Virus record (IMG/VR): IMGVR_UViG_2541047854_000005
Direction: 5' to 3' (one strand)
Length of the DNA stretch: 22,088 nucleotides
From: a virus
Lineage: Duplodnaviria; Heunggongvirae; Uroviricota; Caudoviricetes
In this document: piece by piece, positions 20,346-22,088 of the stretch
How positions within the stretch are numbered: position 1 is the first letter of the stretch
Layout: each line of letters starts with the position of its first letter
Notes under the pieces: generated by a model
What the model was told of the DNA's origin: nothing
Database searches by the model: none
The model's input: the letters and a program-made list of their open reading frames with translations, nothing else
Made by a program: the position numbers and the translations under genes

Positions 20346-22088
20346 TCATAATTTGTTAATGGCAATTTTAACTGTTCTGTTTAGATCGTATATGGCTCCA
20401 AATTTAAAGCTTTCTTTATAGGAAAGGCAAAAAATATCAAGTTTTTGACTAAGATAAATAAGTTTGTTTTTTTCATTAGTGGCGAATTGTTTTATGTTGC
20501 TGATTTGATAGTTGCTACGCAAGAAAGAACTAAATTGCTCAATATCATTAACTGCCCAATTCTTTAAAACGCATTTTGTTACAAATGATACACCTAGTAC
20601 TTCAAGCGGCTTATAATTTCCGAATGGATCTAAAGTGGTTAATTGGTTAGCATTGAATGATGCCCAGCCATTCAATTCTAATTGCAACTTAATAGTGTTG
20701 AGTTCACGCATTTTGATCGTGCTTTCATAACGGTAAAATGAAATTGAGTACAGCAATTTGCTATCTTCAAAACCACTATTTAAGCTATTTTTTCTATCAA
20801 GTGAGTATAGCTCAAAGCATTCTGCAACTTCATTGTCAGTGAATCCGTTCAGAATCGAAGTGACAAACTTTAGAGTTATAATTGGTGATTTTGGTAGGTA
20901 TTTATGTGTGGTTAAATACTCATAATTCTGAAACGCTTTTATCCATTCATAGAAATTACAGTCAATCTTACGGCAAATTAAGTCGACAAGTGTATTTGAA
21001 AGTTCCTTTTCATTTATCTCATGTAATTCTGGACGTGCTGATATTGCAATTTCTCTCATAGTAAGCCGTTTTGCTTCATAAAACAAAACATCCAATATGT
21101 CATTTAATGAAGCTTGTCCGCTATAATACCTTTTAATCTCAGGTTTTATTTTGTAATTATTCAATGCTAACCATAGCACTCTCTCACTATCACTTGATTT
21201 CTCGGTGTTTAATAAAAAAGTTGGATCTTTGTCCTTGAGAAGATCCTCAAGAGAGTGATTATGCAAAAATAATAAAATGAAGAAAGAGCATATTGAGTTT
21301 AAAAGAATTGTTGATGGTATTCGCCAAGAAAGATGAGGATATGATTTAACGTATTCATATAATGGCGTAACTGTGTCCAAAATACGCATCAAAATACGGA
21401 TGTTAACTATGTTGTTATTTTTTACTATATCCTCAAAGAGAATTTTATCTTCCTGTGGGAATTGGGAAAGCTTTCCATTTATTATATCTATATCCAATAT
21501 TTCCTCTGGATGCGGATTATAATGAAGTGTTTCTGCAATGAGTTTTTCCTTGTGTTCTATTTTTAAACCAGACTCAGTTGATGTATTGGTAATAATAATA
21601 AAGTCTAAATTTGAGTTCATCTCGGACATATAAAGAGAATGGCAATATGTCAAAATTTCACTAACTAATGATTTTTCGGATATTCTCTCTATATCATCCA
21701 ATATAAAAATACCATCCAGTTTTGATAAAATGTTTTCTCTAACACTTGCACCAATAGAATTAAACATGCTGTTAATAATATTGGCACTTGCAGGTGAGCC
21801 GCTGGCAATGCTACCTATCCCTGATAGACTTTCGAGCCCGGATTTAAATGTTTGTATATCTTGCAGGTAGTAACAATCTATAATTTTAGCTTTGAAATCT
21901 GATAAGGATTTAATACCTAGTAAAGAAATATAATAGAAAATGTTTTTATCATAGTACTTGGGGAATTTTTTTCTGATAAAGTGAGTCTTTCCTGTGCCCC
22001 AGCTCCCATCAAGCAAAATCAGACCATCTCTTTTTTGTGAAAGTAGATGTATTATTTTTATAATAAGATTGCTGTTAGAGTATTTCAT
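20346..22088 (-). CDS. KAP-family P-loop NTPase (580 aa), candidate PifA-like anti-phage protein
   Basis: Walker A LLDGSWGTGKTHF (GxWGxGKT KAP signature) near residue 30; Walker B GIFILDDIERI near residue 130; AT-rich; ATG at the very last bases of the window. Confidence 0.75.
   Translation of the reverse strand: MKYSNSNLIIKIIHLLSQKRDGLILLDGSWGTGKTHFIRKKFPKYYDKNIFYYISLLGIKSLSDFKAKIIDCYYLQDIQTFKSGLESLSGIGSIASGSPASANIINSMFNSIGASVRENILSKLDGIFILDDIERISEKSLVSEILTYCHSLYMSEMNSNLDFIIITNTSTESGLKIEHKEKLIAETLHYNPHPEEILDIDIINGKLSQFPQEDKILFEDIVKNNNIVNIRILMRILDTVTPLYEYVKSYPHLSWRIPSTILLNSICSFFILLFLHNHSLEDLLKDKDPTFLLNTEKSSDSERVLWLALNNYKIKPEIKRYYSGQASLNDILDVLFYEAKRLTMREIAISARPELHEINEKELSNTLVDLICRKIDCNFYEWIKAFQNYEYLTTHKYLPKSPIITLKFVTSILNGFTDNEVAECFELYSLDRKNSLNSGFEDSKLLYSISFYRYESTIKMRELNTIKLQLELNGWASFNANQLTTLDPFGNYKPLEVLGVSFVTKCVLKNWAVNDIEQFSSFLRSNYQISNIKQFATNEKNKLIYLSQKLDIFCLSYKESFKFGAIYDLNRTVKIAINKL

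Follow-up and report, generated by a model that had tools for sequence, protein, structure and literature searches.

What is an AT-rich gene for a P-loop NTPase doing at the end of a defective prophage? The question is raised by IMG/VR virus record IMGVR_UViG_2541047854_000005 (Caudoviricetes), a stretch of 22,088 nucleotides that we will term the window. The last gene of the window, on its minus strand, encodes a 580-aa protein of the KAP family of NTPases (RefSeq WP_000877736.1, "P-loop NTPase fold protein", the same annotation as in 71 complete Escherichia coli genomes). An earlier reading of this DNA, made from the letters alone (the sequence-only reading), had singled out the KAP gene as a candidate standalone anti-phage gene. 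The parts of that reading that could be checked held up, apart from a detail on the tail-fibre genes. We also favor a role in defence or exclusion, with confidence a little above even, and an anti-phage role is plausible given the family of the protein, the location of its gene, and the published analogues.

The gene is intact: it is the sole long open reading frame (ORF) of its stretch, its 580 codons are uninterrupted, and the Walker A motif (GSWGTGKT) and the Walker B motif named in the sequence-only reading can both be read directly in the translation. The start codon had been placed at the last triplet of the window, and there is indeed an ATG there. (Sequence beyond the window was taken from locus L001 of E. 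coli 23CRST032, where the copy is identical.) A single in-frame TTG lies directly 5' of this ATG, outside of the window, but we consider the ATG to be the start codon because all full-length homologues begin at the same methionine (M-[KE]-x-S-N). The AT-richness of the gene is also real: its G+C (GC) content is 0.316, with 0.291 at third codon positions (GC3), as compared to 0.449 for positions 1-20000 of the window.

Membership in the KAP family, another claim of the sequence-only reading, holds up in a search with hidden Markov models (HMMs). The Pfam model KAP_NTPase (PF07693) matches residues 7-169 with 29.0 bits against a gathering score of 20 (E = 8.3e-7, model positions 6-192 of 293), and a precomputed PF07693 label is present on most of the homologues. 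NCBIfam gave no match for the window protein. The Walker A motif includes the conserved tryptophan (GxWGxGK[ST]), the Walker B motif has the form hhhhDDx[ED]R, and the NTPase core is followed by an alpha-helical extension, as in other KAP proteins. The tryptophan and the DDx[ED]R motif are reportedly described as typical of the family by Aravind et al. (2004).

A word-index search found 38 clusters of homologues, all of about 580 aa (from Escherichia, Citrobacter, Enterobacter, Cronobacter, and others). A second word-index search with the family profile added few relatives, and the size of the family became visible by exhaustive profile search: 251 representatives pass at E ≤ 1e-30, most of them full-length (550-615 aa), and 5,752 pass at E ≤ 1e-10. 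In 63 diverse relatives (17-70% identity), G28, W30, G31, G33, K34, S55, D131, D132, R135, K182, N229, R231, and W511 are invariant, and T35, G58, F65, E134, N168, E181, W382, F519, and Y527 are at least 90% conserved. The protein is a conserved KAP/AAA+-like P-loop switch in which every catalytic residue is retained, and it is probably active.

Classical KAP proteins have a transmembrane hairpin between Walker A and Walker B. (Two or four transmembrane helices within the P-loop domain are typical of the family, but not universal.) In the window protein, this position is occupied by an insert at residues 77-112, which is the only long low-confidence stretch in a model from AlphaFold2 with the family alignment (mean predicted local distance difference test score, or pLDDT, of 84.6). 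We found no transmembrane helices in the insert: the best 19-mer has a Kyte-Doolittle hydropathy of 0.85 in the window protein and of at most 1.48 in the 63 relatives, none of which reaches our cut-off for membrane grade (1.6). The remark in the sequence-only reading that there is no obvious transmembrane insert can thus be extended to the relatives. A hydrophobic helix at residues 257-275 (Kyte-Doolittle 2.09) was considered as a membrane anchor and rejected, as it is buried in the confidently predicted helical domain and is of membrane grade in 6 of the 63 relatives.

The NTPase module of the model has an ASCE core with a helical lid and is structurally similar to initiator or STAND ATPases; its structural neighbors are DNA-loading AAA+ proteins (ORC/Cdc6, RFC, TnsC, and MuB). 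The rest of the protein had been described as lacking any assignable motif, and structure prediction with a fold search had been suggested for it. Pfam has no match in the C-terminal 331 residues, and the structural analysis shows a conserved helical domain without a catalytic fold. By sequence, the family profile has no relative among all chains of the PDB, and a fold search of the viral structures in BFVD found generic AAA+ proteins only (template modeling score, or TM, of 0.28 or below).

The profiles of known and candidate defence systems give a more specific relationship. When the window protein was compared to the PADLOC models, a check that the sequence-only reading had proposed, the match fell to the candidate system PDC-S49 (E = 7e-16 to 9e-7, starting at residue 24 and ending at residue 249 or 291). 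The PDC-S49 models also match 62 of the 63 relatives. We then aligned the family profile to PDC-S49 members that were verified as end-to-end matches to their model (best E = 4.6e-270), and hhalign gave a probability of 100% and E = 1.2e-49 over 554 columns, at about 18% identity. Because this profile-profile alignment spans the full length, the family seems to be a distant branch of the PDC-S49 superfamily. PDC-S49 (Payne et al.) is a single-gene system of about 620 aa, so it is in the same length class, and it likewise has an N-terminal NTPase with GxWGxGKT and DDxER motifs and a helical C-terminal half. Unlike PDC-S49 members in general, the branch of the window protein is enterobacterial and prophage- or plasmid-borne. 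We found no paper that names PDC-S49 in the literature that we searched.

Several KAP proteins have been linked to defence, and their likeness to the window protein varies. PifA of the F plasmid, which is membrane-associated, excludes phage T7 and aborts infection by this specific phage. It is the founding member of the KAP family and is plasmid-borne (PMC13552941). Like the window protein, PifA is a single protein on a mobile element and belongs to the same Pfam superfamily. However, the PADLOC models for PifA and Tmn do not match the window protein at E ≤ 1, and among the 63 relatives there is one weak match to the PifA model (E = 3.2e-5). So, the link to PifA that the sequence-only reading had drawn stands at the level of the Pfam superfamily but not at the level of the PifA model.

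Tmn (Gao et al. 2020) is likewise an anti-phage system of one gene: it is a KAP-type P-loop NTPase that has alpha-helical extensions, and E. coli carries it on mobile elements. Tmn is anchored in the membrane via two helices that are inserted in the P-loop domain, whereas the window protein lacks such a hairpin. This membrane-anchored defence NTPase sits in plasmid leading regions (bioRxiv 10.1101/2022.08.21.504612) and, according to a passage in PMC13552941, reportedly acts through ATP hydrolysis and plasmolysis.

A similar architecture is described in a 2026 study, in which a KAP NTPase from Enterococcus (EF_KAP) with a 322-residue region of unknown function protected against phages, as did three metagenomic KAP proteins with other C-terminal regions of unknown function (PMC13552941). 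EF_KAP protects without abortive infection, and neither its Walker B motif nor its C-terminal region can be dispensed with (PMC13552941). By description, the window protein fits this architecture: EF_KAP is also a single polypeptide, with a KAP NTPase and then about 320 residues without a known domain or a structural match. In contrast to the window protein, which has none, EF_KAP is predicted to have transmembrane helices, an N-terminal one and another within the KAP domain, and genes of the EF_KAP type are in Firmicutes and are linked to small serine recombinases, whereas the window gene is enterobacterial. Finally, the single-gene KAP system Reve, from hotspots in P4 satellites, protects E. 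coli (NAR 2026, PMC13586616); again by description, it differs from our gene in its location, which is a P4 hotspot rather than the prophage slot between SRAP and umuC that we describe below.

The location of the gene is the second line of evidence. The window contains a lambdoid prophage with DLP12-like content that is inserted between espL1/arpB and thrS. As compared to the empty site in E. coli K-12, chromosomal homology stops at window position 2648 and restarts 604 bp past the KAP start codon (L001 15193), and the common attachment (att) core seen in a four-way alignment is about 35 bp long and precedes the thrS ATG by roughly 30 bp. Because these boundaries flank the KAP gene, it is inside the prophage, where about 0.7 kb separates it from the att core of the thrS leader, and it is the last intact gene before attR. 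Its place at the prophage end had been claimed before and is now tied to the att boundaries. The opposite view, that the gene is flanking chromosomal DNA, was rejected on these limits and because the gene travels with prophages to other loci.

The sequence-only reading had also put the KAP gene just past the tail-fibre genes. The order holds, with a 97-aa ORF and a 480-bp spacer in between, but the supposed tail-fibre ORF is a fusion: residues 47-551 are the terminase large subunit gpA (ATPase and nuclease), which joins the C-terminal part of a tail fibre at about nucleotide 17393. Given this deletion fusion, the prophage is defective, and all of its head and tail genes are missing. (In other strains, the same prophage has different deletions, such as an rrrD::fibre fusion in strain 2452.)

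The 97-aa ORF, the spacer, the KAP gene, and its upstream region form a 3.3-kb module that is found beside lambdoid prophages and a prophage with a P22-type tailspike at thrS and also in a prophage at the Qin locus. This module travels with phages. Overall, it adjoins prophages of the lambdoid, P22, and myovirus types (at thrS, Qin, and ssrA), and it also occurs on an Enterobacter plasmid and in islands. In a set of 5,426 complete E. coli genomes, 71 have the gene at 98.6% nucleotide identity or above and 3 more have an allele of 65% identity; all of the copies are chromosomal and there is one per genome.

Is the gene maintained by selection, or could it be a silent passenger that was acquired horizontally, has no function in E. 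coli, and is intact only because it arrived recently with its prophage? For the passenger, we note that 65 of the 71 E. coli copies share at least 99% identity and could be intact simply because they spread recently; that the ratio of nonsynonymous to synonymous substitution rates (dN/dS) is 0.3-0.6 at short range, with a few copies frameshifted; and that a very low GC content is typical of xenogeneically silenced DNA. But at longer range, dN/dS is just 0.12 against the Citrobacter orthologue and 0.08 against the Cronobacter orthologue, and the motifs are conserved over at least 251 family representatives of constant length. Also, the KAP gene outlives its neighbors: it is intact beside decayed genes and in prophages that lack any structural genes. 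These comparisons indicate that the gene is under purifying selection, and we consider a functionless passenger to be very unlikely.

The neighbors of the KAP gene raise another possible function. The sequence-only reading had proposed to look beyond position 22088 for partners. From the KAP start to attR there are roughly 600 bp without any intact ORF, only a decayed SRAP gene (SRAP proteins are YedK-like and sense abasic sites), of which a 36-aa ORF keeps the C-terminus. (A KAP promoter, TTGAGA-17-TAAGAT, is predicted at the end of this SRAP remnant, with about 76% conservation relative to the spacer that separates SRAP from KAP in Citrobacter.) On the other side of the gene, there is a possible 17-residue trace of the 3' end of umuC (UmuC residues 406-422, 59% identity, E = 0.049). 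This match is weak by itself, but its position and orientation agree with the arrangement of KAP and umuC at loci L008, L013, L016, L017, and L018. The relatives show the ancestral order, with SRAP and KAP in one orientation, followed by umuC and umuD in the other.

The main alternative to defence, therefore, is that the KAP protein is an accessory NTPase of a SRAP/UmuDC DNA-damage cassette, where it loads, regulates, or protects translesion synthesis. The order and orientation SRAP-KAP-umuC(D) recurs in at least six contexts, with KAP proteins that are 37-100% identical: at the end of a Citrobacter amalonaticus prophage, at L013, on an Enterobacter plasmid (L016), in myovirus-type prophages at ssrA (L017 in E. 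coli and L018 in another genome), and as remnants in the window. The likeness of the NTPase module to DNA-loading AAA+ proteins would also suit this role. Nevertheless, the KAP gene is convergent with umuDC and hence outside of the umuDC operon, and a scan for LexA boxes, which might place KAP under SOS control, found boxes at umuD promoters only. In two E. coli contexts, SRAP has decayed while KAP is intact, and umuDC is gone from the window. KAP occurs without either neighbor in Cronobacter, in Pseudomonas, in a C. freundii island (with a second KAP gene), and in a colicin island, while SRAP and umuC abut without KAP in six loci and enclose unrelated cargo in about 30. Lastly, between L008 and L013, SRAP, UmuC, and UmuD are 90%, 95%, and 91% identical, but the intervening KAP proteins are just 37% identical, and the KAP genes have a GC content of 0.32-0.33 as compared to 0.49-0.55 for their flanks. 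This contrast suggests swapping of the gene into the cassette rather than coevolution with it. We give a role in the damage cassette little credence, and in the prophage of the window the KAP gene is functionally alone.

If KAP genes are swapped in and out between SRAP and umuC, what else is found there? We used SRAP as bait against one genome per species, which gave 80 enterobacterial loci (L023-L102, with the slot at about 6650-9000 in each), and in 42 of these umuC is present and convergent. Measured between the ends of SRAP and umuC, the gap is 1-26 bp in six loci, where the slot is empty, and 434-5875 bp in most of the others (about 30). The 30 filled slots contain 56 ORFs in 53 unrelated clusters, with a slot GC content of mostly 0.33-0.45. 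We examined the 26 larger slot proteins for domains and defence matches. Many have no Pfam domain, but one is a DRT reverse transcriptase of type UG17 (E = 1.9e-156), which has a SLATT partner, and others are PD-T4-3 (E = 1.3e-135) and a HEPN/Toprim protein. KAP itself is in none of the 80 loci, so its share of the slot must be small. (With the prophage umuDC as bait within E. coli, we found three genomes only; the other matches are to the chromosomal operon, at 75% identity.) The SRAP-umuC junction is a cargo slot that is AT-rich and hypervariable; known defence systems are among its occupants, and so is KAP. We found no description of this slot in the literature that we searched.

A third possibility is that the KAP protein acts in conflicts between mobile elements, by excluding plasmids, satellites, or related temperate phages, or that it is an addiction or stabilization module. 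In accordance with this, the gene is found only on mobile elements and islands, including a plasmid that cannot be mobilized and an island with colicin and immunity genes, and, among KAP proteins, PifA is plasmid-borne and Tmn sits in plasmid leading regions. However, no cognate antitoxin or other partner is conserved beside KAP, and the distinction from defence is partly semantic, because keeping out superinfecting temperate phages is itself a kind of defence. We think that element conflict or addiction, as something separate from defence, is unlikely.

For the preferred reading, a defence or exclusion gene, we propose the following scenario. The KAP protein would be a cytosolic defence NTPase of a single polypeptide, which temperate phages carry as cargo at their att-proximal end. 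Its helical domain would recognize a protein or complex that is made by an infecting phage, or would keep the NTPase auto-inhibited in its absence. Binding and hydrolysis of NTP would then drive oligomerization, as in the related initiator-type AAA+ and STAND switches, and infection would be blocked by remodeling or sequestering the recognized complex or by runaway consumption of NTP. The lysogen would thereby be protected against other phages, which would explain why the KAP gene is intact in a prophage without head and tail genes. We are much less confident in any particular effector step than in a defence role as such, and the blocking or killing step is conjecture.

Several observations weigh against a defence role. 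First, the match to the PDC-S49 HMMs is confined to the N-terminal 225-270 residues of the protein, and PDC systems, which owe their nomination to being embedded in known systems, are explicitly presented as untested candidates (bioRxiv 10.1101/2024.01.29.577857). Second, the helical domain of about 330 residues has no effector or enzymatic fold that we could find. Third, the gene is rare (74 of 5,426 complete E. coli genomes, with a few of the copies frameshifted), and no KAP homologue was found in 50,697 sequenced phage genomes, whether by DNA or by protein search. Fourth, our promoter and terminator calls for KAP are consensus matches that are no commoner than in shuffled sequence, and a gene this AT-rich may be silenced in its host. 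Finally, the slot between SRAP and umuC also carries cargo that is not for defence (a recombinase, a glyoxalase, and a hydrolase).

The finding is not very surprising, as the family is already distantly listed as a defence candidate and other bacteria have supplied validated proteins of this class of architecture. The novelty lies in the soluble form without an effector, a gene that outlives its neighbors in a dead prophage, and the cargo slot between SRAP and umuC. A bolder version, which we find doubtful, is that these amount to a mechanistically new class of immunity protein, in which a cytosolic KAP switch without anchor or effector uses its helical domain to capture or remodel a phage complex in an NTP-dependent manner, and that the SRAP-umuDC junction is an unrecognized defence hotspot on a mobile SOS cassette. 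KAP NTPases are known to protect but their mechanism is not understood, so an active KAP protein that is native to E. coli, soluble, and encoded by a single gene would be a tractable model for how they sense and stop phages. Similarly, the slot may serve as a landmark for further cargo genes in Enterobacteriaceae, given that most of its 53 unrelated clusters have no known domain. Both points extend a known pattern, that of swappable immunity genes at prophage ends, and do not overturn current thinking. The features of the KAP gene and of the prophage are listed in Table 1.

Table 1. Coordinates of the KAP gene, its parts, and nearby features, in window positions unless a locus is named.
Feature	Coordinates	Strand	Basis or remark
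Coding sequence of the KAP-like P-loop NTPase, 580 aa, stop codon included	20346..22088	-	ORF list and translation
Walker A, G28-S-W30-G-T-G-K34-T35	21984..22007	-	read from sequence
Walker B, I-F-I-L-D131-D132-I-E134-R135	21684..21710	-	read from sequence
N-terminal NTPase module (residues 1-250), AAA+-like alpha/beta core and helical lid	21339..22088	-	
Insert between Walker A and B (residues 77-112), Gly/Ser/Ala-rich, predicted disordered	21753..21860	-	pLDDT <50
C-terminal all-helical domain (residues 251-580), conserved aromatics W382, W511, F519, Y527	20349..21338	-	
attL copy of the ~35-bp att core, left prophage boundary	2612..2648	+	end of K-12 homology and four-way alignment
Integrase gene, after attL	2829-4037		
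Deletion fusion ORF, terminase::tail fibre, 817 aa	15744-18197	+	
97-aa ORF (two hydrophobic segments) that ends the tail-fibre operon, convergent with KAP	19571..19864	+	annotated in L001-L005
Putative trace of the umuC 3' end, convergent with KAP, ~45 bp from the KAP stop	20251..20301	+	tblastn
SRAP remnant (YedK-like, abasic-site-sensing), frameshifted	L001 14675-15021 (just outside window)	same as KAP	tblastn E 8e-18

The 97-aa ORF always precedes the KAP gene or module in E. coli prophages, where it follows lambdoid tail-fibre genes as well as the P22-type tailspike gene. Its product has no match in Pfam or PADLOC and could be a membrane-acting superinfection-exclusion protein or a tail-fibre accessory protein.

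The prophage integrates within the 5' leader of thrS (window 2461-2648 and L001 15110-15299). On the attR side, about 190 bp of phage DNA is 76% identical to the host sequence that it displaces and acts as its surrogate, so that the upstream region of thrS is rebuilt from phage DNA. A 28-bp repeat that contains TGTGTACCAA twice occurs in both the P and the P' arms (window 2777-2804 is among its coordinates) and may be an arm site for the integrase.

In C. freundii locus L019, a KAP homologue of 59% identity (7001-8740) adjoins a gene for an 885-aa protein of the CHP02642 family and is about 7 kb from a second KAP_NTPase gene, which encodes 746 aa (from about 15659 onward). This region may be a defence island with two KAP genes.

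Two other parts of the window are of note. A second AT-rich cargo block lies between the Q antiterminator and the lysis genes (9520-12279, with a GC content of 0.32-0.36 at 11000-12500) and encodes a lipocalin, a YbgA-like protein (a 2-thiouracil desulfurase domain with DUF1722), and an AraC-type regulator. The proteins of this block have no PADLOC match, and neither do the four minus-strand ORFs at 14135-15664, between the lysis cassette and the terminase, which encode a DUF1398 protein (141 aa), a DUF3950 protein (77 aa), and two proteins without a Pfam match (85 and 179 aa). GC content is 0.37-0.40 across 14001-15000 and rises to 0.50-0.54 past 15000.

At the other end of the window, a ShET2-like N-terminal region at 727-1671 belongs to the espL1/arpB pseudogene. 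Positions 1-753 have no match in K-12 and contain an ORF of 167 aa (1..504, minus strand), which is the size of InsB of IS1; this segment is probably a copy of IS1 that inserted in the pseudogene.

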